Positions 27,466 to 51,457 of a stretch of 64,000 bases of DNA are shown piece by piece (the first letter of the stretch is position 1; every line of letters begins with the position of its first letter). The position numbers and the translations under genes were made by a program. Source of the stretch: Pseudomonadota bacterium (GTDB lineage: Bacteria; Pseudomonadota; Gammaproteobacteria; Burkholderiales; Burkholderiaceae_E); NCBI GenBank assembly GCA_046046245.1, contig JBJOKE010000011.1, forward strand, positions 50,919 through 114,918, given 5' to 3'. The notes below the pieces were generated by a model that did no database searches, was not told where the DNA came from, and saw nothing but the letters and a program-made list of their open reading frames with translations.

Positions 27466-27490
27466 GCGGAGCGGCTCAGCGCCGCTCCGC
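27466..27490. terminator. Hairpin between convergent tctC-like and MFS genes
   Basis: Perfect 10-bp stem GCGGAGCGGC (27466-27475) / GCCGCTCCGC (27481-27490) with a 5-nt loop that contains the MFS stop codon. No U-tract. Confidence 0.45.
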
Positions 27491-28657: not shown

Positions 28658-29439
28658 CGTCCGGTGAAGCGGGGGGCGCGCTTCTCGACGAATGCGGCGA
28701 CGCCCTCGCGGAAGTCCTCGGTGCGGAAGGCCTGGCCCTGCATCAGCGCCTCGACCTCGAGCTGGTCGGCCAGGCCGTTGCCCGCGCCCTGGGTGAAGGC
28801 CTGCTTGACGAGATCGAGCGCGCGCGTGGGCATCTGCGCGAGCTTCGTCGCGCAGGCGCGGGCCTCGTCGGCGAGCGCCTCGTCGGCGAACACCTTCCAG
28901 ACCAGCCCGTACTGCAGCGCCTCGCGTGCCGGGATCTTGTCGGCGAGCATCACCATCGCTCGCGCCCGGACGTCGCCGACGATCCGGGGCAGGAACCAGG
29001 TGCTGCCGCAGTCGGGCACCAGGCCGATCTTCGTGAACGCCTGCAGGAAGGACGCCGACTCGCCGGCGAGCACCACGTCGCAGGCGAGCGCGAGGCTCAT
29101 GCCGGCGCCGGCCGCCGAGCCGTTGACGGCGGCGACGATCGGCTTGGGGCATTGCCGCATCGCGAGCACGATCGGGTGGTAGCTCTCGCGCAGCGACTGC
29201 GAGACGTCGGCATCGCCGGTGCGCATCGACGAGGCGCCGAGGTCGGCGCCTGCGCAGAAGCCACGGCCGGCGCCGGTCAGGATCAGCGCACGGACCGATG
29301 GATCGGCCTTGGCCGCCGCCAGCGCCGCGCGCAGGCCGTCGAGCATCGCCGGATTCAGCGCGTTCAGCACGCCGGGACGGTTCATCGTGATCGTCATCAC
29401 GCCGCCTTCGACGGCGGTCAGGACGGCGGGCTCGCTCAT
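28654..29439 (-). CDS. Enoyl-CoA hydratase/isomerase (crotonase family)
   Basis: C-terminal 261 aa of track ORF 28654..30324, from MSEPAVLTAVEGGV. AGGAGT RBS. Motifs ILTGAGRGFCAGADL, VAAVNGSAAGAGMSLALACD, EGVAAFVEKRAPRF. Confidence 0.9.
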   Translation of the reverse strand: MSEPAVLTAVEGGVMTITMNRPGVLNALNPAMLDGLRAALAAAKADPSVRALILTGAGRGFCAGADLGASSMRTGDADVSQSLRESYHPIVLAMRQCPKPIVAAVNGSAAGAGMSLALACDVVLAGESASFLQAFTKIGLVPDCGSTWFLPRIVGDVRARAMVMLADKIPAREALQYGLVWKVFADEALADEARACATKLAQMPTRALDLVKQAFTQGAGNGLADQLEVEALMQGQAFRTEDFREGVAAFVEKRAPRFTGR

Positions 29440-29471
29440 CGGGGACTCCTGGGATTCGGGTGGGAACGGGG

Positions 29472-30644
29472 TCAGACCAGGCCGAGCTGGCGTGCGGCGA
29501 GGTCGTTCATCACCTCCTCCGCGCCGCCGCCGATCATGTAGACCTTGCAGTCGCGCCATGCGCGCTCGATCCGCGTGCCGCGCAGGAAGCCGGCGCCGCC
29601 GAGCACCTGCACCGCCTCGTCGGCGACGTCGCGCATCAGCCGCCCGCCGGCGTTCTTCGCGAGCGCCAGCTCGCCGGCCGGCGACTCGCCGGCGTCGAGC
29701 CGCAGCGCGAGCTGGACCAGCCAGGCCTGCAGCGGCAGCACGCCGTCGATCATCCTGACCAGCTTGTGCCGGACCGCCTGGTGGTCGACCAGCCGCGCGC
29801 CGAAGGTGCGGCGCTCGCGCGCCCAGTCGATCGCGTCCTCGCAGCAGGCCATCGCCTGGCCGAGGCCACCGGCGGCCATCGTCATCCGCTCGCCGTTGAA
29901 GTTCTGCATCACGAGACGGAAGCCGCGGTCGACCTCGCCGACCAGGCGCTCGTCGGGCACGAAGACCTCGTCGAAGTAGAGCGCCGCGGTGTCCGAGGCC
30001 CACCAGCCGATCTTCTTCAGCGGCGTGCGCGCGAGGCCCTTCGCATGGCCGTCGACGAGGAAGAGGGAGACGCCGGCCGCGCCCGGGCCGCCGGTCCGCG
30101 CGGCCACGAGGAGGTGGTCTGCGCGGATGCCCGAGGTGATGAACATCTTCTGGCCGGTGATCGCCCAGCCGCCGGGGCGCCGCTGCGCGCGGGTCTGCAG
30201 CTGCGCGACGTCCGAGCCGCCCGAGGGCTCGGTGATCGCGAGCGCGCCGATCGTCTCGCCGGCGAGGATCGACGGGATGACCGTCCGCTTGACCTCGTCG
30301 GTCGCGCCGGCGAGCAGCGGCCACAGCATGATCGAGTGCGAGCCGAGGCTCGCGGTCACGCCGCCGATGCCGGCGCGGCCGAGCTCGACCGACGACAGCA
30401 GCTTCGACACGTTGTCGCAGGGCGTGCCGCCGTATTCGGTCGGATAGCCCAGGCCGAGCAGGCCGACCTCGGCCGCCTTGCGGTAGACCTCGCGCGGGAA
30501 GGTGCCGGCCTCGTCCCAGTCGTTCGCGTGCGGCTGCAGCTCGCCCTCGACGAACGCGCGGACGGCGTCGGCGATCTGCAGGTGCTCGGACGTGACGCCG
30601 GGCAGGGTCGCGAAGTCGAAGGCGGGCAGGCGGGGTGCGGGCAT
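29472..30644 (-). CDS. Acyl-CoA dehydrogenase
   Basis: Track ORF 29472..30644, 390 aa. Motifs GALAITEPSGGSDV, GQKMFITSG, RRTFG, VQVLGGAGF and YMIGGGAEEVMNDL. Confidence 0.9.
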   Translation of the reverse strand: MPAPRLPAFDFATLPGVTSEHLQIADAVRAFVEGELQPHANDWDEAGTFPREVYRKAAEVGLLGLGYPTEYGGTPCDNVSKLLSSVELGRAGIGGVTASLGSHSIMLWPLLAGATDEVKRTVIPSILAGETIGALAITEPSGGSDVAQLQTRAQRRPGGWAITGQKMFITSGIRADHLLVAARTGGPGAAGVSLFLVDGHAKGLARTPLKKIGWWASDTAALYFDEVFVPDERLVGEVDRGFRLVMQNFNGERMTMAAGGLGQAMACCEDAIDWARERRTFGARLVDHQAVRHKLVRMIDGVLPLQAWLVQLALRLDAGESPAGELALAKNAGGRLMRDVADEAVQVLGGAGFLRGTRIERAWRDCKVYMIGGGAEEVMNDLAARQLGLV

Positions 30645-30666
30645 CGCGGCGGTCCTCGTGGGTCGT

Positions 30667-32640
30667 TCAGGCCGGATCCGGTTCGATCCGCACCAGCAGG
30701 CGGCCCGGCGCGACCTGGGTGCCGGCCGCGGCGCCCACCTCGACGACCGTGCCGGCGACCGGCGCCTCGAAGCGATGCTCCATCTTCATCGCCTCGATCG
30801 ACAGCAGGTACGCACCGCGTTCCACGCGCTGGCCGGCCTCGACCGCGACGCGCGTCAGCTGGCCGTGCATCCTGCTGACGATCGCACCGCCCGCCGCGCC
30901 GCCGCCCGCCTCGCGCGGCCGGTCTGTGACGTCGGCGACCGCATCCGAGACACCGAACGCGTCGAGCCAGCCGCGGGGGCCGTCGCCGTGCAGCCGGACC
31001 GCGCCGCGCAGGCCGCCGACCGAGACCGAGGCCCGCAGCCCGTCGTCGGCATGGACCTCGACCTCGATCAGGCGCCCGTCGGCGAGCTCGACCCCGATCG
31101 GTCCCGATGCGGCCACCTCGACGCGGACGGGATGCTCGCGGCCCGCGGCCTCGAGCCGCAGCGGCGAGGCGCGCCGGCCCGACGAGGACCAGCGGGCGAG
31201 GGGCCCGTGGGCCGCGGCCGCGCGGTGGACGCGCAGCGCGGCGGCGACCGCGAGCCAGCGCGGATCGGGCGCGGGCGCCACCCAGTCGGCGGTGGCCTCG
31301 CCGAGCCATGCGGTGGCGAGTTCGGCCCGCGCGAACGGCTCGGCCTGCAGCAGCCTGCACAGCCAGTCGCGATTGGTCCGCAGCCCGCAGACCGTCGTGT
31401 CCCCGAGGGCGGCGACCAGCCGTGCGCGTGCCTGCTCGCGGTCCGTGCCCCAGGCGATCACCTTCGCGATCATCGAGTCGTAGAACGGCGGCACCGCGGC
31501 GCGCGCCGCGAGCCCGTGGTCGACCCGCAGGCCGGCGCCCGCGGGCATCCGCCACGCGCCGATCGGCCCGACCTGGGGGGCAAAGCCCGCGTACGGGTCC
31601 TCGGCGCACAGGCGCGCCTCGATCGCGTGACCGTGGAAGCGGATCGCCTCCTGCGGCAGCGGCAGCGGCTCGCCGCGCGCGACGCGCAGCTGCCAGTCGA
31701 CGAGGTCGAGCCCGGTGATCGCCTCGGTGACCGGATGCTCGACCTGCAGCCGGGTGTTCATCTCGAGGAACCAGAACGCGCCGTCGGGCTCGAGCAGGAA
31801 CTCGATCGTGCCCGCGCCGACATAGCCGACCGCGCGGGCGAGGCGGATCGCCGCGTCCCCCATACGGGCCCGCAGCGATCCGGAGACGCCCGGCGCGGGC
31901 GCCTCCTCGAGCACCTTCTGGTTGCGGCGCTGCGTCGAGCAGTCGCGCTCGCCGAGGTGCACATACCCGCCGAGGGTGTCGCCGAAGACCTGGATCTCGA
32001 CGTGCCGCGCGCGGACCACGCGGCGCTCGACGAGCAGGGTGCCGTCGCCGAACGAGGACTGCGCCTCGGCGCGTGCCGAGCGGATCGCCTCGCGCAGCGC
32101 CTGCTCGTCCGACAGGTCGTCGACCGCGCGCATCCCGCGGCCGCCGCCGCCGGCCGCGGCCTTGACCATCAGCGGCGCGCCGACGTGGCGCGCCTGCGCG
32201 ACCAGGGTCTCGTCGTCCTGGTCGTCGCCCTGATAGCCAGGGAGGCAGGGCACGTCGAGCGACTGCGCGAGCCGCTTGGCCGCCGACTTGTTGCCCAGCG
32301 CATCGATCGCCTCGGGCGGCGGGCCGACGAACACGATCCCGGCCTCGCGCAGCGCCCGCGCGAAGCTCGCGTTCTCGGACAGGAAGCCGTAGCCGGGGTG
32401 GACGGCCTGCGCGCCGGCCGCACGGCACGCGTCGAGGATCCTCGCGATGTCGAGGTAGCTGTCGCGGGCGGGGCCGCCACCGATCCGGACCGCGGCATCG
32501 GCCTCGGCGACGTGGCGCGCGTCGGCGTCGACGTCCGAGTACACCGCCACGGTGCGGATCCCCAGCGCGCGGGCCGTGCGGATCACGCGGCAGGCGATCT
32601 CTCCGCGGTTGGCGATCAGGAGCGTGTCGAACGAGGCCAA
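30667..32640 (-). CDS. Biotin-dependent acyl-CoA carboxylase alpha subunit (biotin carboxylase + BCCP; MccA/AtuF-like)
   Basis: Track ORF 30667..32640, 657 aa. Motifs LLIANRGEIACRVIRTA, MVKAAAGGGGRGMR, IEFLLE, EMNTRLQVEHPVTE and the C-terminal biotinylation motif IEAMKMEH. Confidence 0.9.
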   Translation of the reverse strand: MASFDTLLIANRGEIACRVIRTARALGIRTVAVYSDVDADARHVAEADAAVRIGGGPARDSYLDIARILDACRAAGAQAVHPGYGFLSENASFARALREAGIVFVGPPPEAIDALGNKSAAKRLAQSLDVPCLPGYQGDDQDDETLVAQARHVGAPLMVKAAAGGGGRGMRAVDDLSDEQALREAIRSARAEAQSSFGDGTLLVERRVVRARHVEIQVFGDTLGGYVHLGERDCSTQRRNQKVLEEAPAPGVSGSLRARMGDAAIRLARAVGYVGAGTIEFLLEPDGAFWFLEMNTRLQVEHPVTEAITGLDLVDWQLRVARGEPLPLPQEAIRFHGHAIEARLCAEDPYAGFAPQVGPIGAWRMPAGAGLRVDHGLAARAAVPPFYDSMIAKVIAWGTDREQARARLVAALGDTTVCGLRTNRDWLCRLLQAEPFARAELATAWLGEATADWVAPAPDPRWLAVAAALRVHRAAAAHGPLARWSSSGRRASPLRLEAAGREHPVRVEVAASGPIGVELADGRLIEVEVHADDGLRASVSVGGLRGAVRLHGDGPRGWLDAFGVSDAVADVTDRPREAGGGAAGGAIVSRMHGQLTRVAVEAGQRVERGAYLLSIEAMKMEHRFEAPVAGTVVEVGAAAGTQVAPGRLLVRIEPDPA

Positions 32641-32665
32641 GGCGACTCTCCGCGTCGGGACCCGT

Positions 32666-33826
32666 TCAGCGCTCGCGAGGCAGGATGCCCATCGTCTTCG
32701 CGATGATCCCCATCATCACCTCGTCGGCGCCGCCGCCGATCGAGCCGAGCCGGGTGTCGCGCCAGAAGCGGTTCACCCGCGTCTCCTCGATGTAGCCCAT
32801 CCCGCCCCAGAACTGCACGCACCAGTCGGCGACCTCGCGCGCGACGCGCGCGCCCTTGAGCTTCACCATCGACGCGAGCTGGGTCACGTCGTGGCCCTGG
32901 ATGTACAGGCCCACCGCCTTGTGGAAGAGGGCGCCCACCGCCTCGACCTCGGTCTGCAGCTCGGCGAGCTTGTAGTAGATGTACTGGTTGTGCAGCAGCG
33001 GCTTGCCGAAGGCCTGACGCTCGCGCAGGTAGTCGATCGTCTCCTGGATGACGTGCTTCGACTTGGTCCAGCCGGCGCCGGCCCACAGCCGCTCCTCCTG
33101 GAACTGCTCCATCTGGTAGACGAAGCCCATGCCTTCCTCGCCGATCCGCCAGCGCTGCGGCACGCGGACCGAGTCGAAGTGCAGCTGCGCGGTGTCCGAC
33201 GCGTTCATGCCGGCCTTCTTCAGCTTCTTCGCGACCGAGACCCCCCTGGTCTTCATCGGCACGCAGATCAGCGTCTTGTTGCGGTGGCCGCCGCCCTCGG
33301 AGGTGTTCGCCAGCAGGCAGATCCAGTCGGCCTGCGTGCCGTTGGTCGTCCACATCTTGCCGCCGTCGATCACGTAGTCGTCGCCGTCCTTGCGCGCGAC
33401 CGTGCGGATCGACGCGACGTCCGAACCCGCGCCGACCTCGGACACGCCGAGGCAGGCGACGTACTCGCCGGTGATCGAGGGCTCGAGGAATTCCTTGCGG
33501 ACCTCGTCGTTGCCGCGCCTGGCGAGCGCGGGCGTGGCCATGTCGGTCTGCACGCCGATCGCCATCGGGATGCCGCCGCAGCGGATGTGGGTCAGCGCCT
33601 CGGCGAACGCGGCCGCGTACGAGTAGTCGAGGCCCATCCCGCCGTACTCCGCCGGCTTGTGCACGCCGAGGAACCCGAGCTTGCCCATCTTCCGGAACAG
33701 CTCCTTGGCCGGGAAGATCTCGGCCTTCTCCCATTCGTCGACGAAGGGGTTGATCTCCGAGTCGATGAACTTCTTCAGCGAGTCCTGCAGCGCGACGTGG
33801 TCGGGGCCGTAGATGGACGGTTGCAT
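32666..33826 (-). CDS. Acyl-CoA dehydrogenase (isovaleryl/citronellyl-CoA dehydrogenase-like)
   Basis: Track ORF 32666..33826, 386 aa. Motifs VDEWEKAEIFP, CLGVSEVGAGSDVAS, GGKMWTTNG, RQAFGKPL, QFWGGMGY, GSIGGGADEVM. Confidence 0.9.
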   Translation of the reverse strand: MQPSIYGPDHVALQDSLKKFIDSEINPFVDEWEKAEIFPAKELFRKMGKLGFLGVHKPAEYGGMGLDYSYAAAFAEALTHIRCGGIPMAIGVQTDMATPALARRGNDEVRKEFLEPSITGEYVACLGVSEVGAGSDVASIRTVARKDGDDYVIDGGKMWTTNGTQADWICLLANTSEGGGHRNKTLICVPMKTRGVSVAKKLKKAGMNASDTAQLHFDSVRVPQRWRIGEEGMGFVYQMEQFQEERLWAGAGWTKSKHVIQETIDYLRERQAFGKPLLHNQYIYYKLAELQTEVEAVGALFHKAVGLYIQGHDVTQLASMVKLKGARVAREVADWCVQFWGGMGYIEETRVNRFWRDTRLGSIGGGADEVMMGIIAKTMGILPRER

Positions 33827-33860
33827 CGGGTGTCTCCGGTGTGGCGGGGGATCCAGGGGC

Positions 33861-35489
33861 TCAGGGGCGGGCGACGCCGAACTGCATCGGCCGCATGCTG
33901 CGGCGCTCGGCGCGGCGGCAGACGTCGAACGCCAGGCCGAGCACGCGGCGGGTGTCGCGCGGGTCGATCACGCCGTCGTCGAGCATCCGCCCGCTGGTGT
34001 AGAAGGCATCGGACTGGCGGTCGAAGTTCGCGACGATCCTCGCCTCGAGGGCCGACAGCTGCGCCTCGTCGACCGGCACCCCGCGCCGCTTCGCGCCGCC
34101 TTCGGCGACGATCCGCATCGTGAGCGCGGCCTGCTCGCCACCCATCACCGCGGTGCGCGCGTTCGGCCACGAGAACACGAAGCGCGGGCCGTAGGCGCGG
34201 CCGCACATCCCGTAGTTGCCGGCGCCGAACGACGCGCCGCACATCAGGGTGATCGCGGGCACGGTGGCGTTCGCCACTGCCTGGATCATCTTCGAGCCGT
34301 GCTTGATCATGCCGGCCTGCTCGGAGGCGCGGCCCACGATGTAGCCGGTGGTGTTCTGCAGGTAGAGCAGCGGGATGCCGCTCTGGCAGCACGACTGGAT
34401 GAAGTGGGTGGCCTTGGTGGCGCCCGCCGGGTCGATCGGCCCGTTGTTGGTGACGATGCCGATCGGCTGCCCGTAGAGCGACGCGTGGCCGCAGACGGTG
34501 GCCGGGCCGTAGTCGCGGCCGAAGTCGAGGAATTCCGAGCGGTCGACGATCCGCGCGATCACCTCGTGCATGTCGACCGGCTGGCGGAAGTCGAGCGGCA
34601 TCGCGCCGGCGAGCTCGTCGGTGGGATGGAGCGGCTCGAGCGCAGCGTCGTCCGCGAGCGTCGAGCCCGGGCCCTGGGCGTCCCAGGCGAGCCGCGCCAT
34701 CAGCTCGCGCGCGATCCGCAGCCCGTCGGCATCGTCGTCGGCGAGGAACTCGCCGAGCCCGGAGACCGTCGCGTGCATCTCGCCGCCGCCCAGTTCCTCG
34801 TCGGTCGCGATCTCGCCGGTCGCCGCCTTCAGCAGCGGCGGGCCGGCGAGGAAGGCGCGCGCCCGGCCCTTCACCATGATCACGTAGTCGGACAGGCCCG
34901 GCATGTAGGCGCCGCCCGCGGTCGAGGAGCCGTGGACCACGGCCACCACCGGGATGCCGGCGGCCGACAGCCGCGCGAGGTTGTAGAAGATCCGCCCGCC
35001 GTGGACGAAGCCGTCGACCTGGTACTTGAGCAGGTTCGCGCCGGCCGACTCGATCAGCTGGACGAAGGGCAGCCGGTTCTCGAGCGCGATCTCCTGCGTG
35101 CGCAGCAGCTTCTCGCGGCCCATGTGCTGGATCGCGCCGGCGTCGATGCCGGCGTCACTGACCGTGATCGCGCAGCGGGTGCCGCCGACGACCCCGATGC
35201 CGTTGATCATCCCGCCGCCGGGCACGGACTTCTCCGGGTCCGGCTCGTCGCAGAGCCAGCCGGCGAGCGATGACAGCTCGAGCCAGGGGGCACCGGGGTC
35301 GAGCAGCCGCGCGAGCCGCTCGCGCGGCAGCAGCTGTCCCCGCCTGTCGAAGAGCGGCTTGGCCTTCGCGGACGCGGTCGCGGCACGGGTCTCGAGCTCG
35401 CGCATCCGTGCGACCAGCGCGAGCATGCCCTCGCGCCGCTCGGAGAAGGCCGGCGAGGACGCGTCGATCCGGGAGTCGATGACCGGCAT
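33861..35489 (-). CDS. Acyl-CoA carboxylase carboxyltransferase beta subunit (MccB/AtuC-like)
   Basis: C-terminal 542 aa of track ORF 33861..36479, from MPVIDSRIDASS (CAT at 35487-35489). Motifs GGGMINGIGVVGG, QEIALENRLPFVQLIESAGANL, GSSTAGGAYMPGLSD, GPIDPAGATKATHFIQ, FSWPNARTAVMGGEQA. Confidence 0.9.
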   Translation of the reverse strand: MPVIDSRIDASSPAFSERREGMLALVARMRELETRAATASAKAKPLFDRRGQLLPRERLARLLDPGAPWLELSSLAGWLCDEPDPEKSVPGGGMINGIGVVGGTRCAITVSDAGIDAGAIQHMGREKLLRTQEIALENRLPFVQLIESAGANLLKYQVDGFVHGGRIFYNLARLSAAGIPVVAVVHGSSTAGGAYMPGLSDYVIMVKGRARAFLAGPPLLKAATGEIATDEELGGGEMHATVSGLGEFLADDDADGLRIARELMARLAWDAQGPGSTLADDAALEPLHPTDELAGAMPLDFRQPVDMHEVIARIVDRSEFLDFGRDYGPATVCGHASLYGQPIGIVTNNGPIDPAGATKATHFIQSCCQSGIPLLYLQNTTGYIVGRASEQAGMIKHGSKMIQAVANATVPAITLMCGASFGAGNYGMCGRAYGPRFVFSWPNARTAVMGGEQAALTMRIVAEGGAKRRGVPVDEAQLSALEARIVANFDRQSDAFYTSGRMLDDGVIDPRDTRRVLGLAFDVCRRAERRSMRPMQFGVARP

Positions 35490-35491
35490 GC

Positions 35492-36403
<912 letters not shown>

Positions 36404-36536
36404 CGCGCGGTCCGGATGATGAGCGGGAATGCGTTAGCGTGTCGGCAGGGGTCGGGGGCGTCAAGTTGCGGCGCAGCATCCCGGGCGCGGGACAGTCCGG
36501 AAACGCCCTGCTCGAGCCGGTTTCCGGCGGGCGCCC

Positions 36537-36564
36537 TTGACGGTGCCCTGCGGCGCCCTATACT
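36537..36564 (+). promoter_or_regulatory. Sigma70-like promoter for the TetR-AtuA operon
   Basis: TTGACG (36537-36542), a 16-nt spacer, then TATACT (36559-36564), about 40 nt upstream of the TetR ATG. The -10 is immediately followed by CTGAG-N5-CTCAG dyad symmetry (36563-36577). Confidence 0.45.
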
Positions 36565-36605
36565 GAGCCGGACTCAGCAACGGCGCCCCCGCGCCCCCGC
36601 CGACG

Positions 36606-37295
36606 ATGACGGCACTGCCCCGACGACGCAAGGCCGTGCGCCGCACGGAGATCCTGGCCGCGGCGCGCGAGGTCTTCGTCGCCAAGCGCTTCGAGGACGC
36701 GTCGGTCGCCGAGATCGCGGCGCGCGCGGACTGCGTCGAGGGCACCCTCTACACCTATTTCCGCAACAAGCGCGACCTGTTCGACGCGGTGCTGACGGAG
36801 ATCTACGATGCGCTGATCGCCGACATCGAGCCGCGCTTCGCAGCGCTCGAGGGCACGGCCGATCGGCTGCGGTTCCTGATCGCGAGGCACCTGCAGATCG
36901 CGGTCGACGACCCCGGGGTGTCGGCGATGCTCGGGCGCGAGGCGCGCGGCTCGCTGCCGTACTTCGGCTCGACGCAGCACGACCTGAACCGCCGGTACGC
37001 GCGCTTCCTCACGAGGACGCTGTCCGACGGCGTCGAGCGCGGCGAGCTTCGGGCGGACCTGGACCTTGCGATGGCGCGCGACTTCGTCTTCGGCGGGCTC
37101 GAGCATCGCGTCCGCGAGCTGCTGGGCCGCGGCAGGAGGATCGATCCGCCCCGGATGGCGCGCGAGATGACCGCGATGCTGCTCGACGGCTTCGCGGCGC
37201 GGCCGGCGGCGCCGGCGGCGAGGGGCGCGCCGCTGGACAGGATCGAGGCGCGACTGGCGCGGCTCGAGGACGAACTGAGGGCGAGGGCGCGATAG
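36606..37295 (+). CDS. TetR/AcrR-family transcriptional regulator (AtuR-like position)
   Basis: Track ORF 36606..37295. N-terminal HTH EILAAAREVFVAKRFEDASVAEIAARADCVEGTLYTYFRNKRDLF. It is divergent from the carboxylase operon. Confidence 0.9.
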   Translation: MTALPRRRKAVRRTEILAAAREVFVAKRFEDASVAEIAARADCVEGTLYTYFRNKRDLFDAVLTEIYDALIADIEPRFAALEGTADRLRFLIARHLQIAVDDPGVSAMLGREARGSLPYFGSTQHDLNRRYARFLTRTLSDGVERGELRADLDLAMARDFVFGGLEHRVRELLGRGRRIDPPRMAREMTAMLLDGFAARPAAPAARGAPLDRIEARLARLEDELRARAR

Positions 37296-37322
37296 CGCCT
37301 GGCACGGGAGGAGACACCGCAG

Positions 37323-39101
37323 ATGGCGAAGGACACGATCCGGATCGGCAGCGCGTCGGGCTTCTGGGGCGACACCGCCGCAGCCGCGCCGCAGCTCGTG
37401 CGTCGCGGCGACATCGACTACCTGGTCTTCGATTACCTGGCCGAGGTCACGATGTCGATCATGGCCGCGCAGAAGGCCAAGGACCCCGCCGCCGGCTATG
37501 CACGCGACTTCGTCGAGATCACGATGAGGCAGCTGCTGCCCGAGCTGAAGGCGAAGGGCGTTCGCGTGGTGGCGAACGCCGGCGGCGTCAACCCGCTCGC
37601 CTGCCGCGACGCGCTCGCCCGCATCGCGGCCGAGCTGGGCGTGCCGATCCGCATCGGTGTCGTGCTGGGCGACGACCTGTCGACGCAGGCCGAGGCGCTG
37701 CGGGCCGAGGGCACGGTCGAGATGTTCAGCAGCGCGCCGTTCCCGAGCCGGCTCGCGAGCGTCAATGCCTACCTCGGCGCGCTGCCGATCGCCCGCGCGC
37801 TCGACGCAGGCGCGGATGTGGTGATCACCGGCCGCTGCGTCGACTCCGCGGTCACGCTGGGCGTGATGGTCCATGCGTTCGGCTGGGACCCGTCGGACTT
37901 CGACCGCCTCGCGCAGGGCACGCTCGCCGGCCACATCGTCGAGTGCGGCGCCCAGGGCACCGGCGGTCTGTTCACCGACTGGGACACCGTGCCCGGCTGG
38001 GACGACATCGGCTATCCGATCGTCGAGGCCCGACCCGATGGCAGCTTCGAGGTCACCAAGCCGCCCGGCACCGGCGGCCTGGTCAGCTGCGCGTCGGTGT
38101 GCGAGCAGCTGCTCTACGAGATCGGCGATCCGAGGGCCTACCACGTGCCCGACGTCGCCTGCGACTTCACCGCGGTCCGCTTCGAGCAGACCGGGCCCGA
38201 CCGTGTCCGGGTGACCGGGGCGCGGGGCCGCGCGCCGACCGACACCTACAAGGTCAGCGCCACCTACCCCGACGGCTTCCGGAACGTCGCGCTGCTGGTG
38301 GTCGCCGGCGAACGGGCCGCGCAGAAGGCGCGCCGCACCGGCGAGGCGCTGCTCGCGCGGATGACGCGGATGCTCGCCGAGCAGGGTCTGCCCGCCTTCA
38401 CCGAGACGCGGATCGAGGTGGTCGGCGCCGAGGACATGTACGGTGCGATCGCACGACCCGAGTCGCGCGAGGTGGTGCTCAAGCTCGCTGCGCGCTCGCC
38501 GTCGAAGGCCTCGCTCGAGCTCTTCGCGCGCGAGTTCGCGCCGGCCGGCACCTCGATGTCGCCGGGCACGACCGGCTTCGGCGGTGGCCGGCCGACGCCG
38601 TCGCCGGTGATCCGGCTGTTCTCCTTCCTCGTCCCGAAGCGCCGGGTGCCGGTCGAGATCGACGTCGACGGGGTCCGGACGCCGGTCGCGATCCCGGTCG
38701 ACGGCGGCTTCGCCGAGTCCGAGCTGCCGCCCGCGCGGGTGCATGCCGACGCCGTGCTGCCGCCGACGGCCCGGACCGTGAAGCTGATCGCGCTCGCGCA
38801 CGGCCGCTCCGGCGACAAGGGCGACAAGGCGAACATCGGCATCGTCGCGCGCCGCCCCGAATGGCTGCCGCTGCTGTCGGCCTGGCTGACCCCCGAGCGC
38901 GTCGCCGCGCACTTCGCGCACAACCGGCCGTCGCGTGTCGAGCGCTTCGACCTGCCCGGCTTCGATGCGATGAACTTCCTGCTGCACGACGTCCTCGGCG
39001 GCGGCGGCATGGCCTCGCTGCGGACCGACAACCTCGCGAAGTGCTATGCGCAGGTGCTGCTGCAGATGGACGTGCCCGCGCCCGAGGGCGTCGGCGCCTG
39101 A
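37323..39101 (+). CDS. AtuA-family protein (DUF1446, acyclic terpene utilisation), unknown biochemical function
   Basis: Track ORF 37323..39101, 592 aa. Motifs IRIGSASGFWGD, DYLVFDYLAEVTMSI, VVITGRCVDSA, GHIVECGAQGTGG and a C-terminal HGRSGDKGDKANIG segment. Confidence 0.85.
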   Translation: MAKDTIRIGSASGFWGDTAAAAPQLVRRGDIDYLVFDYLAEVTMSIMAAQKAKDPAAGYARDFVEITMRQLLPELKAKGVRVVANAGGVNPLACRDALARIAAELGVPIRIGVVLGDDLSTQAEALRAEGTVEMFSSAPFPSRLASVNAYLGALPIARALDAGADVVITGRCVDSAVTLGVMVHAFGWDPSDFDRLAQGTLAGHIVECGAQGTGGLFTDWDTVPGWDDIGYPIVEARPDGSFEVTKPPGTGGLVSCASVCEQLLYEIGDPRAYHVPDVACDFTAVRFEQTGPDRVRVTGARGRAPTDTYKVSATYPDGFRNVALLVVAGERAAQKARRTGEALLARMTRMLAEQGLPAFTETRIEVVGAEDMYGAIARPESREVVLKLAARSPSKASLELFAREFAPAGTSMSPGTTGFGGGRPTPSPVIRLFSFLVPKRRVPVEIDVDGVRTPVAIPVDGGFAESELPPARVHADAVLPPTARTVKLIALAHGRSGDKGDKANIGIVARRPEWLPLLSAWLTPERVAAHFAHNRPSRVERFDLPGFDAMNFLLHDVLGGGGMASLRTDNLAKCYAQVLLQMDVPAPEGVGA

Positions 39102-39137
39102 CCCGAGTCCCGAACCCGAACGAAGGAGGAGACCCCC

Positions 39138-40007
39138 GTGCCCATCGACGTCGCCACGCTGAAGAACTGGCCGTTCGAGCCGATCGAGCAGCGCTACACC
39201 CATCGCGACACCATCCTCTACGCGCTCGGCCTGGGGATCGGCCAGGACCCGCTCGATCCGGTGCAACTGCGCTACACCTACGAGGACGGCCTGCAGGCGC
39301 TGCCGACGATGGCCGTGGTGCTGGGCTCGCCGGGCTTCTTCGCGAAGGACCCGCGGACCGGCATCGACTGGGTGAAGCTGCTGCACGGCGAGCAGGAGCT
39401 CGAGCTGCATGCGCCGCTGCCCTCGGAGGCCACCGTCACCGGCCTCACGAAGGTCACGCGGCTGGTCGACAAGGGCGCGGGCAAGGGTGCGCTGATGTAC
39501 TCCGAGCGCACCATCACCGCCGCGAAGAGCGGCACGAAGCTCGCCACCAGCCGCAGCGTGTCGTTCATGCGCGGCGACGGCGGCTTCTCGGCGAGCGGCC
39601 AGCCCTCGGACGAGGCGCCGCCCGCCCGGCCCGCCACGCCCGACACGCCGCCGGACACCGTCTTCGAATGGAAGACCCGGCCCGAGGCCGCCCTGGTCTA
39701 TCGGCTCTCGGGCGACTACAACCCGCTGCACGCCGATCCGAAGGTCGCCACCGCCGCCGGCTTCAAGGCGCCGATCCTGCACGGGCTGTGCTCGTTCGGC
39801 GTGACCGGCTGGGCGCTGGTGAGCGCGGTCTGCGGCGGCGACGCGTCGAAGCTGAGGTCGATCGGCACGCGCTTCGCCTCGCCGGTCTATCCGGGCGAGA
39901 CGCTGCGCGTGGAGATCTGGAAGAACGGTGGGGCCGTGCAGTTCCGCACCCGGGTGGTCGAGCGCGACATCGTCGTACTGAGCCACGGCACCGCGACGAT
40001 CGCTTGA
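39138..40007 (+). CDS. MaoC-family double hot-dog (R)-specific enoyl-CoA hydratase (MFE-2 hydratase-2-like)
   Basis: Track ORF 39138..40007. GTG start follows AGGAGGA. Motifs LYALGLG, YRLSGDYNPLHADP, FKAPILHGLCSFG. Confidence 0.85.
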   Translation: MPIDVATLKNWPFEPIEQRYTHRDTILYALGLGIGQDPLDPVQLRYTYEDGLQALPTMAVVLGSPGFFAKDPRTGIDWVKLLHGEQELELHAPLPSEATVTGLTKVTRLVDKGAGKGALMYSERTITAAKSGTKLATSRSVSFMRGDGGFSASGQPSDEAPPARPATPDTPPDTVFEWKTRPEAALVYRLSGDYNPLHADPKVATAAGFKAPILHGLCSFGVTGWALVSAVCGGDASKLRSIGTRFASPVYPGETLRVEIWKNGGAVQFRTRVVERDIVVLSHGTATIA

Positions 40008-40037
40008 GACGAACCAGGAAGAAGGGAGAAGAAGGGA

Positions 40038-40949
40038 ATGTCGATGCTGAAGGACAAGGTCGTGATCGTCACCGGCTCGGGCCGGGGCATCGGTCGCGAC
40101 ATCGCGATGATGATGGCCGCGCACGGCGCGAAGGTCGTGGTCAACGACCCGGGCGTGTCGGCGAGCGGCGAGGGCCAGGACGCCGGGCCGGCCGCGCAGG
40201 TGGTCGACGAGATCCGCAAGGCCGGCGGCACCGCGGTCGCGAACACCGATTCGGTCGCCGAGTGGGAGTCGGCCAACCGGATCGTGAAGACCGCGGTCGA
40301 CGCGTTCGGGACGGTCCACGCGGTGGTCAACAACGCGGGCATCCTGCGCGACCGCATCTTCCACAACATGTCGGTCGACGAGTGGAAGGCGGTCATCGAC
40401 GTCCACCTGAACGGCTCGTTCTACATGGCCAAGGCGGTGGCGGCGATCTTCAAGAGCGAGGAGCGCGGCGCCTTCGTGCACATGACCTCCACCTCGGGCC
40501 TGATCGGCAACTTCGGCCAGGCGAACTACGCGGCGGCCAAGCTCGGCATCGTCGGGCTCTCCAAGTCGATCGCCCTCGACATGGCCCGCTTCAAGGTGCG
40601 CTCGAACTGCATCTCGCCGTTCGCCTGGAGCCGGCTGATCGGCACGATCCCCTCGGACACGCCCGAGCAGCAGGCTCGGCTCGCGCGGATGCAGGCGATG
40701 GAGACGGCGAAGATCGCGCCGCTCGCCGTCTACCTGTGCAGCGACCAGGCCGAGCGCGTCAGCGGCCAGATCTTCGCGGTCCGCGCGAACGAGATCTTCC
40801 TGATGGGCCAGAGCCGCCCGATCCGCTCGGTCCACCGCGGCGAGGGCTGGACGCCCGAGACGGTCGCGAACCACGCGATCCCCGCGATGGAGAAGAGCTT
40901 CTACCCGCTGGAGCGCTCCGGCGACGTCTTCAACTGGGACCCGGTCTGA
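40038..40949 (+). CDS. SDR-family 3-hydroxyacyl-CoA dehydrogenase (MFE-2 dehydrogenase-like)
   Basis: Track ORF 40038..40949. Motifs VVIVTGSGRGIGR, VVNNAGILRD and GQANYAAAKLGIVGL (intact YxxxK). Confidence 0.9.
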   Translation: MSMLKDKVVIVTGSGRGIGRDIAMMMAAHGAKVVVNDPGVSASGEGQDAGPAAQVVDEIRKAGGTAVANTDSVAEWESANRIVKTAVDAFGTVHAVVNNAGILRDRIFHNMSVDEWKAVIDVHLNGSFYMAKAVAAIFKSEERGAFVHMTSTSGLIGNFGQANYAAAKLGIVGLSKSIALDMARFKVRSNCISPFAWSRLIGTIPSDTPEQQARLARMQAMETAKIAPLAVYLCSDQAERVSGQIFAVRANEIFLMGQSRPIRSVHRGEGWTPETVANHAIPAMEKSFYPLERSGDVFNWDPV

Positions 40950-40950
40950 C

Positions 40951-42390
40951 ATGACAGCTTCATTCGGCATCCTCTCGGTCGGCGCGTACCTGCCGCGCGC
41001 CCGCATGCAGCGCAAGGCCGTGGCCGCGGCCAACGGCTGGTTCGCGCCGGGCCTGAAGGGCCTGGGCAAGGGCGAGCGCACGATCGGCAACTGGGACGAG
41101 GACACGATCACGATGGCGGTCGAGGCCGCCCGCGACTGCCTCGGCGACCTGGACCGCTCGGGCCTGAAGCAGCTGGTGCTGGCCTCGACCACGCACCCGT
41201 TCGACGACCGCCAGAACGCGACGGTGGTCGCCACCGCGCTGCACCTGCCGAGCGCGCTGCGCACGGCCGACGCCGCCGGCAGCCTGCGTGCCGGCACCGG
41301 CGCGCTGATCGCCGCGCTGGAAGGCCGTGACCGCACGCTGGTCGTCGCCGCCGACATGCGCCGGGCGAAGGCCGGTAGCACGCAGGAGATGCAGTACGGC
41401 GACGGCGCGGCCGCGGTGCTGGTCGGCGAGGGCACGCCGATCGCGACGCTGGTCGGCGCGCACACCGAGTCGGTCGACTTCGTCCACCAGTACCGGATGC
41501 ACGACCGCAACAGCGACTACGGCTGGGAGGAGCGCTGGATCCGCGACGAGGGCTACCTGAAGCTGGTGCCGCGCGCGGTCGGCGCGCTGCTGAAGCGCTG
41601 CGGGGTCGAGCCGGGGGCGGTCGCGCACTTCGTGATGCCGGGCACGCTGTCGAAGGTCCAGGCCGCGGTCGCGAAGAAGTGCGGGCTGCCCGAGACCGCG
41701 GTCCGCGACCCGCTGGGCGCCACCGTCGGCGACACCGGCGCCGCGCATCCGCTGCTGATGCTGGCGGCCGCGCTGGATGACGCGAAGCCCGGCGACAAGG
41801 TCCTGGTGGCGGGCTTCGGCGAGGGCTGCGACGTGCTGCTGCTCGAGGTGGGGCAGGGCGCGTCGGCCGCGAAGCGCGGTTTCAGGGGGGCGCTCGCCGA
41901 CCGTCGCGAGGAGTCGAACTACCTGCGCTGGCTGAGCTTCACCGGCACGATCGACCTGGAGCGAGGCATGCGTGCCGAGGTCGACAAGGCCACCGCGATG
42001 ACGGTGCTCTACCGGAACCGCGACATGATCGAGGGGCTGGTGGGTGGCAGGTGCCGGGCCTGCGGCACGGTACAGTTCCCGCGCCAGCGCTACTGCGTGA
42101 ACCCCGCCTGCAACGCGCTCGACAGCCAGGACGACTACGTCTTCAGCGAGCGGACCGGCAAGGTGATCTCGTACACGGCCGACGGCCTGACCTACAGTCC
42201 CGACCCGCCGACCTACTTCGGGATGGTGCAGGTCGACGGCGGCGGGCGCATGCTGATGGACTTCACCGAGGTCGATCCGGCCGCGATGGACGTCGGGCTG
42301 CCGGTGAAGATGGTGTTCCGGATCAAGGACGCGGACCCCAACCGGGGCTTCGTGCGGTATTTCTGGAAGGCCGCGCCTGCGCGCGGCTGA
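40951..42390 (+). CDS. HMG-CoA-synthase/KAS-III-like domain fused to a DUF35 Zn-ribbon/OB-fold domain
   Basis: Track ORF 40951..42390, 479 aa. The N-terminal ~330 aa has a thiolase-superfamily fold (GILSVGAYLP, YGDGAAAVLV, VAGFGEGCDV). The C-terminus carries CRACGTVQFPRQRYCVNPAC plus OB-fold signatures (ISYTADGL, GMVQVDGGGRMLMDF, VKMVFR). Confidence 0.8.
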   Translation: MTASFGILSVGAYLPRARMQRKAVAAANGWFAPGLKGLGKGERTIGNWDEDTITMAVEAARDCLGDLDRSGLKQLVLASTTHPFDDRQNATVVATALHLPSALRTADAAGSLRAGTGALIAALEGRDRTLVVAADMRRAKAGSTQEMQYGDGAAAVLVGEGTPIATLVGAHTESVDFVHQYRMHDRNSDYGWEERWIRDEGYLKLVPRAVGALLKRCGVEPGAVAHFVMPGTLSKVQAAVAKKCGLPETAVRDPLGATVGDTGAAHPLLMLAAALDDAKPGDKVLVAGFGEGCDVLLLEVGQGASAAKRGFRGALADRREESNYLRWLSFTGTIDLERGMRAEVDKATAMTVLYRNRDMIEGLVGGRCRACGTVQFPRQRYCVNPACNALDSQDDYVFSERTGKVISYTADGLTYSPDPPTYFGMVQVDGGGRMLMDFTEVDPAAMDVGLPVKMVFRIKDADPNRGFVRYFWKAAPARG

Positions 42391-42410
42391 CGACGGACGA
42401 GGAGAACGAC

Positions 42411-43613
42411 ATGGCGAGCGGAATCAAGGACAAGGTGGTCATCCTCGGGATGGGCTGCTCCAAGTTCGGCGAGCGCTGGGACGCGAACGCCCAGGACCTG
42501 ATGGTCGAGGCCTTCGAGGAGGCGCTGAAGGACGCGGGCATCGAGCGCAAGCAGATCGATGCGGCGTGGCTGGGCACCGCGATCGAGGAGCAGCACCTCG
42601 GCAAGTCGGCCGTGCCGCTGGCGATGACGCTGAGGCTGCCCTACATCCCGGTCACCCGCGTGGAGAACTACTGCGCGACCGGTACCGAGGCCCTGCGCGG
42701 CGCGGTCTATGCGGTGGCCTCCGGCGCGGCCGACATCGCGCTGGCGCTGGGTGTCGAGAAGCTGAAGGACACCGGCTACGGCGGCCTGCCGCAGCGCAGC
42801 CGCGGTGCCCTGAACGACCTGTTCTGGCCGAACCTGTCGGCGCCGGGCTCGTTCGCGCAGCTGGCGGCCGCCTACCGCGCCAAGCACGGCGCGAACAAGG
42901 AGGACCTGAAGCGGGCGATGGCGCACATCTCGGTGAAGTCGCACGCGAATGCCGCGAAGAACGCGAAGGCGCACCTGCGCAACGCGATCACCGAGGAGGA
43001 CGTGCTGAAGGCGCCGATGATCGCCGAGCCGCTGGGGCTCTACGACTGCTGCGGCGTGTCCGACGGCTCGGCCTGCGCGATCGTCACCACGCCCGACATC
43101 GCGCGCGGCCTCGGCAAGAAGGACCTGGTCGCCGTGAAGGCGCTGCAGCTCGCGGTCTCGAATGGCGAGGAAGTCCAGTTCGACAAGTGGGACGGCTCGT
43201 ACTTCGCGACCACCCGGGTCGCGGCGGCGCGCGCCTACAAGGAAGCCGGCATCACGAAGCCCCGCGACCAGGTCTCGCTGGTCGACGTGCACGACTGCTT
43301 CTCGGTCACCGAGCTGGTCACGATGGAGGACCTGCAGCTGTCCGCCGAAGGCACGGCGATCCGGGACGTGCTCGACGGCTTCTACGACGCCGACGGCACG
43401 GTGCCCTGCCAGATCGACGGGGGGCTCAAGTGCTTCGGCCACCCGATCGGCGCCTCCGGCCTGCGGATGGTCTACGAGATGTACCTGCAGCTGAGCGGCC
43501 GTGCCGGCGAGCGGCAGCGGTCGGCGCCGGTCTGGGGGATGACGCACAACCTCGGCGGATTCCCGAGCCAGAACGTCTCGTCCGTGACGATCGTCGGACA
43601 GTACGGGGCCTGA
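42411..43613 (+). CDS. SCP-x/nsLTP-type thiolase (thiolase domain protein)
   Basis: Frame of track ORF 42051..43613. ATG at 42411 follows GAGGAG. Motifs VVILGMGCSKFGERW, VENYCATGTEALR (nucleophile Cys), HDCFSVTELV, GGLKCFGHPIGASG. Confidence 0.85.
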   Translation: MASGIKDKVVILGMGCSKFGERWDANAQDLMVEAFEEALKDAGIERKQIDAAWLGTAIEEQHLGKSAVPLAMTLRLPYIPVTRVENYCATGTEALRGAVYAVASGAADIALALGVEKLKDTGYGGLPQRSRGALNDLFWPNLSAPGSFAQLAAAYRAKHGANKEDLKRAMAHISVKSHANAAKNAKAHLRNAITEEDVLKAPMIAEPLGLYDCCGVSDGSACAIVTTPDIARGLGKKDLVAVKALQLAVSNGEEVQFDKWDGSYFATTRVAAARAYKEAGITKPRDQVSLVDVHDCFSVTELVTMEDLQLSAEGTAIRDVLDGFYDADGTVPCQIDGGLKCFGHPIGASGLRMVYEMYLQLSGRAGERQRSAPVWGMTHNLGGFPSQNVSSVTIVGQYGA

Positions 43614-43726
43614 GGCGGGGTTTCGGCGAGCACTGCTCGCCGCCGCCTCAGGGGGACCCGGCATGCTTGCCGGGTCCGCGGGCTGCAGGCCTGAGGCGGG
43701 GTTTCGGCGAGCACTGCTCGCCGCCG
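43607..43726. repeat. Pair of identical 39-nt direct repeats with embedded hairpins (REP-like / terminator region)
   Basis: GGCCTGAGGCGGGGTTTCGGCGAGCACTGCTCGCCGCCG occurs at 43607-43645 and again at 43688-43726. Each copy holds the hairpin GGCGAGC-ACT-GCTCGCC. Copy 1 is closed by TGAGGCGG/CCGCCTCA arms. A separate 9-bp hairpin GGACCCGGC/GCCGGGTCC lies at 43654-43677. Copy 1 includes the thiolase stop codon. Confidence 0.85.
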
Positions 43727-45849: not shown

Positions 45850-45941
45850 GGGGCGGGGTCGCGGACAACCTGAACACCGCCGGTCGGCCGCCGGGCGGCA
45901 ATTGCCTGGACCGTTTCGCCGACGGCATAGTGGATCTCGCC

Positions 45942-48399: not shown

Positions 48400-48453
48400 C
48401 GGTCGCGACAGTGAAGCGTGCAGTCGATCGAGGCGCACTTCGAGACGAGGCCC

Positions 48454-49242: not shown

Positions 49243-49280
49243 TCGGCGCCCCGCTCCGATTCCGAGTCCCGGACCCCGCC

Positions 49281-50444: not shown

Positions 50445-50453
50445 AACGTTATA
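50442..50453. promoter_or_regulatory. Second, degenerate copy of the TGAAACGTT half-palindrome
   Basis: TGAAACGTTATA at 50442-50453 matches the 48358 palindrome at 10 of 12 positions. It starts with the CoA-transferase stop codon and sits in an AT-richer 43-nt spacer before the lyase gene. Confidence 0.35.
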
Positions 50454-50487
50454 TGGATTCGGGCTGCATCTCCGGAAGGAACCCTCG

Positions 50488-51423: not shown

Positions 51424-51457
51424 CCGGCCTCCCTCCCCTTCGCACGAGACACGACCC

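Follow-up and report, generated by a model that had tools for sequence, protein, structure and literature searches.

A lineage-restricted atu-type cluster joined to a predicted (R)-specific beta-oxidation module in Burkholderiales

We analysed a 64,000-nucleotide stretch of DNA (here termed the window) from the genome of a freshwater-type member of the Burkholderiales (GenBank assembly GCA_046046245.1, contig JBJOKE010000011.1, positions 50,919 to 114,918 of the forward strand), in which the gene for a protein of the AtuA family (DUF1446; DUF, domain of unknown function) lies in a predicted operon with genes resembling those for enzymes of beta-oxidation. The contig belongs to a 5.55-Mb assembly of 93 contigs, and the G+C content of the window is 73%. 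An original prediction, made from the DNA letters and a list of open reading frames (ORFs), had described this gene set and proposed that its context could help assign a role to AtuA. Here we describe the gene content of the locus and its relation to the atu cluster of Pseudomonas, the predicted properties of its principal proteins, and the phylogenetic distribution of their linkage, and we set out a predicted pathway for 3-methyl-branched acyl-CoAs together with its alternatives.

Gene content of two divergent operons

Matches to Pfam, NCBIfam and PDB entries bore out the six-gene set on the plus strand, all members of which are real and intact: a TetR regulator, AtuA, a MaoC hydratase, a short-chain dehydrogenase/reductase (SDR), a fusion of a domain like 3-hydroxy-3-methylglutaryl-CoA (HMG-CoA) synthase (HMGCS) with DUF35 (here termed the fusion), and a thiolase (Table 1). 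These genes are arranged head to tail with intergenic gaps of 27, 36, 30, 1 and 20 nt, as the predicted range of 1-36 nt requires; the fusion gene starts 1 nt past the stop codon of the SDR gene, and strong Shine-Dalgarno sequences precede four of the five downstream genes (AtuA, MaoC, SDR and thiolase). The start of the thiolase was corrected to the ATG at 42411, which follows GAGGAG, instead of the long-ORF start at 42051. The sigma-70-like promoter that had been placed upstream was also recovered: TTGACG-16-TATACT is the sole such site in 7.6 kb, where shuffled sequence averages 0.3. Inverted repeats lie beside it (CCGGAAAC/GTTTCCGG, 36497-36527; GGGCGCC/GGCGCCC, 36529-36558). A sequence scan of the interior of this operon found neither a promoter-like site nor a convincing terminator-like site. 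At its 3' end, two ~39-nt GC-rich, hairpin-capable repeats (43607-43726) adjoin the thiolase stop codon; they are not accompanied by a T-run, so that the terminator scan was silent there.

The carboxylase genes diverge from the AtuA operon, as predicted, and occupy the minus strand 202 nt upstream of it, in an operon with the order AtuB-like SDR, carboxyltransferase (CT), acyl-CoA dehydrogenase (ACAD), biotin carboxylase with biotin carboxyl carrier protein (BC/BCCP), a further ACAD, crotonase and a major facilitator superfamily (MFS) transporter. Because protocatechuate-type aromatic genes begin past the transporter, we took the unit to be 27476-43613 (16 kb, 13 genes). The TetR regulator probably represses both operons from the common 202-nt region; in NCBIfam it scores highest, though under cut-off, against the acyl-CoA-sensing FadR of Bacillus, and the Pseudomonas atu loci yielded no orthologue of it. 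Beyond the other end of the unit, a BcsE-like gene (45930-47516, plus strand) lies 2.3 kb past the thiolase, whereas its counterparts in other species of the genus (59-64% identical) lie ~0.1-0.5 kb past; with this larger spacer, the intervening segment looks like a local insertion.

Table 1. Features of the two divergent operons, with positions in the window and the basis of each assignment
Feature	Position	Strand	Basis or remark
Sigma-70-like promoter TTGACG-16-TATACT	36537..36564	+	10/12 consensus matches; in the 202-nt divergent intergenic region
TetR-family regulator, first gene of predicted operon	36606..37295	+	PF00440
AtuA, 592 aa, DUF1446 part fused to C-terminal ferredoxin-like domain	37323..39101	+	PF07287, PF23544
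Predicted (R)-specific 2-enoyl-CoA hydratase, double hot-dog MaoC, MFE-2 hydratase-2 type	39138..40007	+	PF22622 + PF01575
Predicted (3R)-hydroxyacyl-CoA dehydrogenase, SDR, MFE-2 / 17beta-HSD4 type	40038..40949	+	PDB matches
HMGCS/PhlA-like domain without catalytic residues, fused to DUF35 (zinc ribbon + OB fold)	40951..42390	+	PF08541 + PF12172 + PF01796
SCP2/archaeal-type thiolase	42411..43613	+	NCBIfam PRK06157; motifs kept
AtuB-like SDR	35492..36403	-	First gene of divergent operon
AtuC-like acyl-CoA carboxylase CT subunit	33861..35489	-	Identity to Pseudomonas atu gene
AtuD-like acyl-CoA dehydrogenase (ACAD1)	32666..33826	-	Identity to Pseudomonas atu ACAD
AtuF-like BC + BCCP subunit	30667..32640	-	Identity to Pseudomonas atu gene
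Second acyl-CoA dehydrogenase (ACAD2)	29472..30644	-	No counterpart in Pseudomonas atu cluster
Crotonase	28654..29439	-	Nearest solved relative PaaG-type isomerase/hydratase 4fzw_C
MFS transporter, last gene of divergent operon, 4-nt overlap with crotonase gene	27476..28657	-	

More than ten Pseudomonas loci fetched by AtuA alignment display the canonical order atuA-B-C-D-E-F, so that the prediction's statement that atuA precedes atuBCDEFGH there stands for this portion of the cluster. Relative to these loci, the minus-strand proteins of the window are 54-57% (AtuB-like SDR), 53-56% (CT), 56-60% (AtuD-like ACAD) and 46-50% (BC) identical to their atu counterparts, the AtuB-like SDR being also 50-60% identical to the product of the gene after atuA in Pseudomonas, Marinobacter and Acinetobacter; CT, BC and the AtuD-like ACAD all lie within 7 kb of AtuA. 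By this orthology the locus is an atu-type cluster with an altered layout. Its resemblance to atuRABCDEFGH of P. aeruginosa and P. citronellolis extends to orthologues of AtuA, B, C, D and F together with a crotonase, to a TetR-type regulator gene divergent from catabolic genes, and to a presumed common logic in which a 3-methyl group is carboxylated, the product hydrated and acetate cleaved off. The window differs in that (i) atuA lies in a separate operon, divergent from the carboxylase genes; (ii) AtuG (a second SDR) and AtuH (an acyl-CoA synthetase) are absent; (iii) the crotonase is not clearly of AtuE type, being 30-36% identical to the crotonase of the Pseudomonas atu cluster; (iv) there is an extra ACAD; and (v) four additional genes would provide a dedicated (R)-specific round of beta-oxidation, a step that Pseudomonas leaves to housekeeping enzymes encoded elsewhere.

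Two further features of the carboxylation genes merit description. A second CT/BC pair, 47-48% identical to the pair in the locus, is present elsewhere in the genome and, judged by homology, can serve as a methylcrotonyl-CoA carboxylase of liu type. The AtuB-like SDR has as its top NCBIfam match 2,4-dienoyl-CoA reductase (200 bits, cut-off 318), a resemblance that questions the usual label of AtuB as a "citronellol dehydrogenase"; with the crotonase, this SDR could instead form an auxiliary pair for double bonds at even positions, as in 4-ene intermediates of unsaturated terpenoids.

Predicted properties of AtuA and the beta-oxidation proteins

The AtuA of the window matches PF07287 over nearly its whole length (model positions 1-435 of 437; 484.5 bits, cut-off 22.8), and PF23544 with 94.6 bits (cut-off 27); it is 51-55% identical to AtuA of Pseudomonas atuABCDEF loci. 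An AlphaFold2 model of the protein (mean pLDDT 85, pTM 0.88) has a single significant fold match in the PDB, 9evf_A (Foldseek E 8.7e-23, probability 1.00, TM 0.68 on target), the next match having an E-value of 4e-3. The title of 9evf is "Citramalate lyase - ADP - pyruvate complex", and both this entry and 9erq are labelled as AtuA family protein, citramalate lyase subunit A (cmlA). Independently, a profile built from 34 diverse AtuA proteins matched 9erq_A with an E-value of 2.5e-11. The Cml enzyme (cmlAB) of Raoultella planticola splits citramalate directly into pyruvate and acetate (preprint 10.64898/2026.01.16.699985), AtuA-like proteins of the thn operon have been annotated as lyases (PMC12016498), and a 2026 paper states that the corresponding cleavage "was expected to be catalyzed by AtuA" (PMC13689101). 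The description of AtuA as a protein of unknown function is thus fair for AtuA proper and dated for the family, which, by analogy with the solved lyase, now has a defined chemistry; AtuA proper is itself a predicted lyase.

The chemistry that the comparison suggests is specific. Citramalate and the proposed substrate of AtuA are alike in having a tertiary carbinol with a CH2-COO- arm that leaves as acetate, and the model and this analogy point to AtuA as a putative acetate-releasing lyase acting on 3-hydroxy-3-alkylglutaryl-CoA. CmlA and the AtuA of the window have the DUF1446 fold in common, and release of acetate from a tertiary beta-hydroxy acid by CmlAB is analogous to the reaction proposed; the two proteins are, however, only 17% identical in sequence, and CmlAB is a two-subunit enzyme with a free acid as its substrate, whereas the AtuA of the window is one chain, with a domain like the small subunit fused to it, and presumably acts on a CoA ester. 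No CoA ligase, CoA-transferase or AMP-binding enzyme is encoded in the 13-gene locus. The absence of a CoA ligase or CoA-transferase fits a cleavage yielding acetate and acyl-CoA, rather than the acetyl-CoA and free acid produced by a reaction of HMG-CoA-lyase type.

For the MaoC hydratase, the best PDB matches are peroxisomal hydratase-2 and the hydratase domain of multifunctional enzyme type 2 (MFE-2), namely 7mku (E 1e-55), 1s9c (3e-53) and also 3khp; for the SDR encoded downstream of it, they are the (3R)-hydroxyacyl-CoA dehydrogenase domains of MFE-2 (2et6, 1zbq, 1gz6, 3oml). Because the nearest solved relatives of both proteins are of MFE-2 type, the designation of the pair as MFE-2-type and (R)-specific is supported at the level of homology. 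Together with the thiolase, whose matches include type-1 thiolases of sterol carrier protein 2 (SCP2), they give the module the MFE-2/SCP2 character that had been ascribed to it. The module thereby resembles peroxisomal MFE-2 with the SCPx thiolase, and mycobacterial Hsd4A/Hsd4B, in its set of a predicted (R)-specific hydratase-2, a predicted (3R)-hydroxyacyl-CoA dehydrogenase and an SCP2-type thiolase, a combination employed on branched or bulky acyl-CoAs; it differs in that its polypeptides are separate and bear no SCP2 lipid-transfer domain, and in that its thiolase is paired with a predicted pseudo-HMGCS::DUF35 protein. The analogy to steroid side-chain or benzylsuccinate-type beta-oxidation that the prediction had invoked is not needed: the second half of the Atu pathway itself calls for such a module.

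The thiolase matches NCBIfam PRK06157 with 690 bits and, among solved and characterised proteins, the thiolase of the archaeal complex (6esq_A, E 7e-53) and the benzoylsuccinyl-CoA thiolase BbsB in addition to the SCP2 type-1 enzymes. In the alignment to 7yvy its nucleophilic Cys (NYCATG) is retained, as are the HDCF (VHDCFS) and GHP (GHPIGASG) motifs. The adjoining fusion presents the opposite picture. Its N-terminal domain is nearest to PhlA (9skh, 5m3k) and then to archaeal HMG-CoA synthase (6esq_I), and its C-terminus to the DUF35 chains of the PhlA and archaeal HMGCS complexes. When aligned to 6esq_I, the catalytic Glu, Cys, His and Asn are replaced by Thr80, Leu112, Pro230 and Asp261. 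Among 123 homologues of the fusion (48-100% identical) the four positions are occupied by T/S, L/Q/M, P/A and D/E/Q, respectively; Glu, Cys and His do not occur at their catalytic positions in any of the 123. The match to NCBIfam PRK04262 (159 bits) also lies under its cut-off of 244. As judged from these residues, the HMGCS-like domain is predicted not to be an HMG-CoA synthase, and to be incapable of making HMG-CoA.

Three candidate functions for the fusion and thiolase were considered and set aside. An HMG-CoA synthase run in reverse, cleaving hydroxy-alkylglutaryl-CoA together with the thiolase, was rejected on the family-wide loss of catalytic residues. An archaeal type of thiolase/HMGCS/DUF35 complex at the entry to the mevalonate pathway was ruled out by the replacement of Glu, Cys and His alike; all three components are homologous to those of that complex (thiolase, E 7e-53; HMGCS, E 1e-16; DUF35, E 1e-7), and the pair in the window differs in the loss of the HMGCS residues, in its fused DUF35 and in its catabolic setting. 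A Friedel-Crafts acyltransferase of PhlACB type was ruled out by the retention of HDCF in the thiolase and by neighbours that are all genes of acyl-CoA catabolism.

A closer precedent is PfACAT/HMGS-DUF35 of Pseudomonas fluorescens (PMC12960953, 2026), in which a fused HMGS-DUF35 without the E-C-H-N tetrad adjoins an ACAT bearing Cys, HDxF and GHx. In vitro this complex made neither acetoacetyl-CoA nor HMG-CoA and cleaved acetoacetyl-CoA thiolytically; some 1,000 bacterial ACAT/HMGS-DUF35 loci were found, with no pathway assigned to them (PMC12960953). Given the lost tetrad, the retained thiolase motifs and this precedent, the pair in the window is best read as a degradative thiolase with a partner, the fusion, that would be non-catalytic. 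The likeness between the two pairs lies in the tetrad-less fusion adjoining a thiolase with Cys, HDxF and GHx; the difference is that the published complex was described as not yet recruited into a defined pathway, whereas the pair in the window is embedded in an explicit catabolic operon. Searches of five Pseudomonas genomes with atu clusters revealed no homologue of the fusion (0/5).

Distribution of the linkage between AtuA and the beta-oxidation genes

To inventory the neighbours of AtuA, we sought the proteins of the window within ~10 kb of AtuA in 80 loci of other species (AtuA 51-73% identical), retrieved with an 11-sequence alignment and representing Burkholderiales, Rhodobacterales, Pseudomonas, Marinobacter, Acinetobacter, Nevskiales and others. 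A crotonase was present in 54/80 loci, CT in 47/80, BC in 44/80, an AtuD-like ACAD in 31/80 and the AtuB-like SDR in 24/80; in ~15 of the 80 a crotonase gene lies directly upstream of AtuA in the same direction. The widespread partners of AtuA are thus carboxylase, ACAD and crotonase genes. By comparison, the MaoC hydratase was found in none of the 80 loci, the fusion in one, the orthologous thiolase in one and the orthologous MFE-2 SDR in two. In the nearest outgroup (AtuA 73% identical), TetR-AtuA is followed by an unrelated flavoprotein, and the divergent genes are CT-ACAD-BC-ACAD-crotonase.

A separate survey addressed DUF1446 as a family, using 301 evenly drawn genomes of Pseudomonadota, 51 of which bear DUF1446; outside the genome under study these contain 57 DUF1446 genes. 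DUF35 occurred within 10 kb of DUF1446 for one of the 57, itself a weak family match, and was absent altogether from 29 of the 50 other DUF1446-bearing genomes. A general, family-wide linkage of DUF1446 to DUF35 or thiolase genes was rejected on this count (1/57). The original prediction had called for a comparison of DUF1446 neighbourhoods and had named a lack of conserved linkage to the beta-oxidation set as an outcome that would speak against it: by the counts for MaoC (0/80), the fusion (1/80) and DUF35 (1/57), such linkage is largely lacking outside one genus.

Within that genus the pattern is different. Among 24 other species surveyed, 11 contain the fusion; in 10 of these the contig with the fusion also bears AtuA, at a distance of 1.9-2.0 kb, and in the eleventh the contig is too short to include AtuA. 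A detailed comparison of five congeners found complete synteny of both operons in each (5/5), and the arrangement is kept even between species in which AtuA identity has fallen to 81-90%. In congeners with AtuA and no fusion, CT genes are only 47-59% identical, some of them at contig ends, and the best CT of one genome is 48-49% identical. Across the order, the fusion was found in 4/201 genomes.

One other instance of joining was found. A Nevskiaceae metagenome-assembled genome (MAG; OZ244200.1, 3981-16500) carries on one strand genes for the fusion, a thiolase, a thiolase-like protein, an ACAD, AtuA, BC, CT and an ACAD, an arrangement that represents an independent joining of fusion and thiolase with AtuA. 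Its second thiolase-like gene encodes a C-terminal domain only, and the genome contains three copies of the fusion gene, two with identical scores. Save for this MAG, the joining of the atu set to its own beta-oxidation genes in one predicted operon is restricted to the genus.

A second copy of DUF1446 occurs in the genome under study, on the minus strand of another contig (39980-48304), as a split, CmlAB-like pair of 452 aa and ~118 aa, the smaller with the motif RSGDKGD; genes for a DUF35 protein and a thiolase-like protein lie ~3 kb from it. The genome has six DUF35 matches in its 5.55 Mb; by rough arithmetic, the chance that both DUF1446 copies would lie within 10 kb of one is ~5e-4. The apparent operon of this second copy also encodes an IclR regulator, the DUF35 protein (133 aa), a 703-aa ADP-forming acyl-CoA synthetase, a Bug/TctC receptor and an epimerase-like SDR, and its thiolase-like protein has, by eye, GGATG in place of the CATG of the nucleophilic Cys. 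We read these occurrences, which speak for a functional tie, as repeated but sporadic recruitment of DUF35-type thiolases beside AtuA-family lyases, and as no rule of the family.

A predicted pathway and its alternatives

The analysis directly establishes the identity, order and spacing of the genes, the lost HMGCS catalytic residues, the intact thiolase motifs, the relation in fold between AtuA and citramalate lyase, and the phylogenetic distribution; the function of the locus is deduced from these. We favour, with moderate confidence, an interpretation of the 16-kb locus as an Atu-type, self-contained repeating cycle for 3-methyl-branched (isoprenoid-like) acyl-CoAs, equipped with its own beta-oxidation enzymes that were acquired in the genus. 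Homology and context would assign all of its steps as follows: (i) the AtuD-like ACAD1 would form a 3-methyl-2-enoyl-CoA; (ii) the AtuC/F-like biotin carboxylase would carboxylate the 3-methyl group; (iii) the crotonase would hydrate the carboxylated product to 3-hydroxy-3-alkylglutaryl-CoA; (iv) AtuA would split this tertiary alcohol into acetate and a 3-oxoacyl-CoA, breaking the type of bond that is broken by CmlAB in citramalate; (v) the thiolase, held in a complex by the predicted dead HMGCS-like::DUF35 protein, would shorten the 3-oxoacyl-CoA by acetyl-CoA; and (vi) ACAD2, which we take to be the ACAD of the beta-oxidation round, would complete one ordinary round together with the (R)-hydratase, the (3R)-dehydrogenase and, once more, the thiolase, either exposing the next 3-methyl branch or yielding 3-methylcrotonyl-CoA for a separate carboxylase of liu type. 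The crotonase is given the role of AtuE, and MaoC that of beta-oxidation, because a crotonase is the sole hydratase in the nearest outgroup cluster.

Several observations weigh against this proposed cycle. The nearest solved relative of the crotonase is PaaG-type 4fzw_C (E 7e-73), to which it is closer than to the AtuE proteins compared, so that the division of steps between the two hydratases is uncertain. An enzyme activity for AtuA sensu stricto was not found in the literature searched, and ADP, bound in 9evf according to its title, indicates that the chemistry of AtuA may differ from a simple lyase reaction. The linkage itself is dissociable in both directions. In three congeners AtuA (78% identical) is followed directly by an orthologue of the MFE-2 SDR (86% in the two fetched), and the fusion is absent from all three genomes. 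Elsewhere in Burkholderiales, where the fusion is 71-74% identical, SDR, fusion and thiolase form the conserved unit; the genes after it encode split ACADs, an NMO-like reductase and a crotonase, and AtuA is absent. Coupling of AtuA to the fusion is therefore not obligatory. Finally, an operon that could provide another means of cleavage, described below, lies 4.8 kb past the thiolase.

Other features of these variant loci were recorded. Two of the three congeners, which have small genomes, carry an AtuD-like ACAD and a crotonase divergent from AtuA, and the two short contigs retrieved from them yielded neither MaoC nor a carboxylase gene. In two other Burkholderiales MAGs, too, AtuA precedes an SDR, there 67% identical. 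One of the Burkholderiales cassettes has a FitA-like RHH/PIN toxin-antitoxin pair between fusion and thiolase (contig positions 11524-12203).

The same observations bear on an interpretation that we consider unlikely, in which the genes became neighbours by an accident of history: in an ancestor of the clade, a mobile cassette of SDR, fusion and thiolase, together with MaoC, would have landed downstream of atuA, where they would act on another branched or alicyclic substrate and merely use a common TetR-controlled promoter. Consistent with such mobility, the AtuA-free cassette of other Burkholderiales encodes proteins 71-91% identical to those of the window; the fusion occurs without adjacent AtuA in two genomes and probably in a third, which has the fusion and whose AtuA content was not searched; the nearest outgroup has its unrelated flavoprotein in the place of the module; and the MaoC and fusion counts around AtuA are as low as 0/80 and 1/80. 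Accident does not so readily account for gaps of 1-36 nt with no internal promoter-like or convincing terminator-like site, for the persistence of the arrangement across species whose AtuA proteins have diverged to 81-90% identity, or for the independent joining in Nevskiaceae; and the Atu pathway chemically needs exactly a thiolase and one round of beta-oxidation.

A different division of labour is envisaged if cleavage were LiuE-like, catalysed by the HMGL-like lyase encoded at 50488-51423 with the family III CoA-transferase and crotonase encoded just upstream, AtuA having some other role; we regard this as improbable. The plus-strand operon concerned (48418-52651) comprises the crotonase (48418-49242), the CoA-transferase, the HMGL-like lyase and an ACAD, and from its gene content could specify a lyase route of LiuE type or of citramalyl/HMG-CoA type; a LacI regulator gene follows it. 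LiuE of P. aeruginosa is reportedly active on the isohexenyl analogue. A route of CoA transfer and a LiuE-like lyase has been discussed as an alternative to an AtuA-like route (PMC13689101). Between the atu-type locus and the HMGL-like operon, however, lies an unrelated segment with the bcsE-like gene in it, and a search of the 10 kb around AtuA in the 80 other loci recovered nothing of that operon save for one crotonase match, whereas AtuA itself co-occurs with the carboxylase across Pseudomonadota (CT 47/80, BC 44/80) and has a lyase as its sole structural relative. We assign a similarly low probability to the view that the substrates are alicyclic, naphthenic-type acids and that AtuA opens or trims a carboxymethyl-substituted ring, a role that has been proposed for the AtuA-like ThnQ/ThnS when naphthalene is degraded anaerobically. 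In its support, the AtuA-like lyases annotated in the thn operon stand beside MaoC hydratases, thiolases and dehydrogenases (PMC12016498), ring opening by an AtuA-like aldolase is favoured in PMC13689101, and atuA is described as induced by naphthenic acids in a Pseudomonas strain (PMC11495318); MFE-2/SCP2-type enzymes, moreover, typically accept bulky substrates. The full-length orthology of the locus is nevertheless to the Atu proteins of Pseudomonas, including a pair like geranyl-CoA carboxylase, and the locus contains no ring-reducing or ring-hydrolysing genes.

An elaboration of the proposed 3-methyl-branched acyl-CoA cycle is more speculative still, and we consider it very improbable: that the dead HMGCS-like domain keeps an HMG-CoA-like binding site and serves as a dock between AtuA and the thiolase, allowing the lyase to hand its 3-oxoacyl-CoA straight on for thiolysis. 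The idea derives from the proposed substrate of AtuA, which would be an analogue of HMG-CoA with a long 3-alkyl group. Such an assembly might be a catabolic mirror image of the archaeal channelling complex, the lyase replacing the irreversible synthase and thiolysis pulling the reversible lyase step. In its favour are the second, split AtuA copy beside DUF35 and thiolase-like genes, and the independent joining in the Nevskiaceae MAG; against it are the cassettes elsewhere that are not accompanied by AtuA, and the lack of enrichment across Pseudomonadota.

We conclude that this is an atu cluster in a lineage-specific form, equipped with a beta-oxidation module of its own, and no new kind of system or pathway. 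The suggestion that its context helps to assign a role to AtuA holds in part: the context fits an AtuA that produces the substrate of the thiolase, but the linkage is local, and the contextual evidence for AtuA is accordingly weak and lineage-restricted. For ACAT/HMGS-DUF35 proteins, the neighbourhoods described here, both the operon of the window and the Burkholderiales cassette with split ACADs and crotonase, place at least some of these loci in the beta-oxidation of branched acyl-CoAs. If the favoured model is true, the genus would encode every step in the breakdown of isoprenoid chains in one regulated 16-kb unit, which would offer a compact test bed both for the reaction of AtuA proper and for the physiological job of the ~1,000 orphan bacterial ACAT/HMGS-DUF35 loci.

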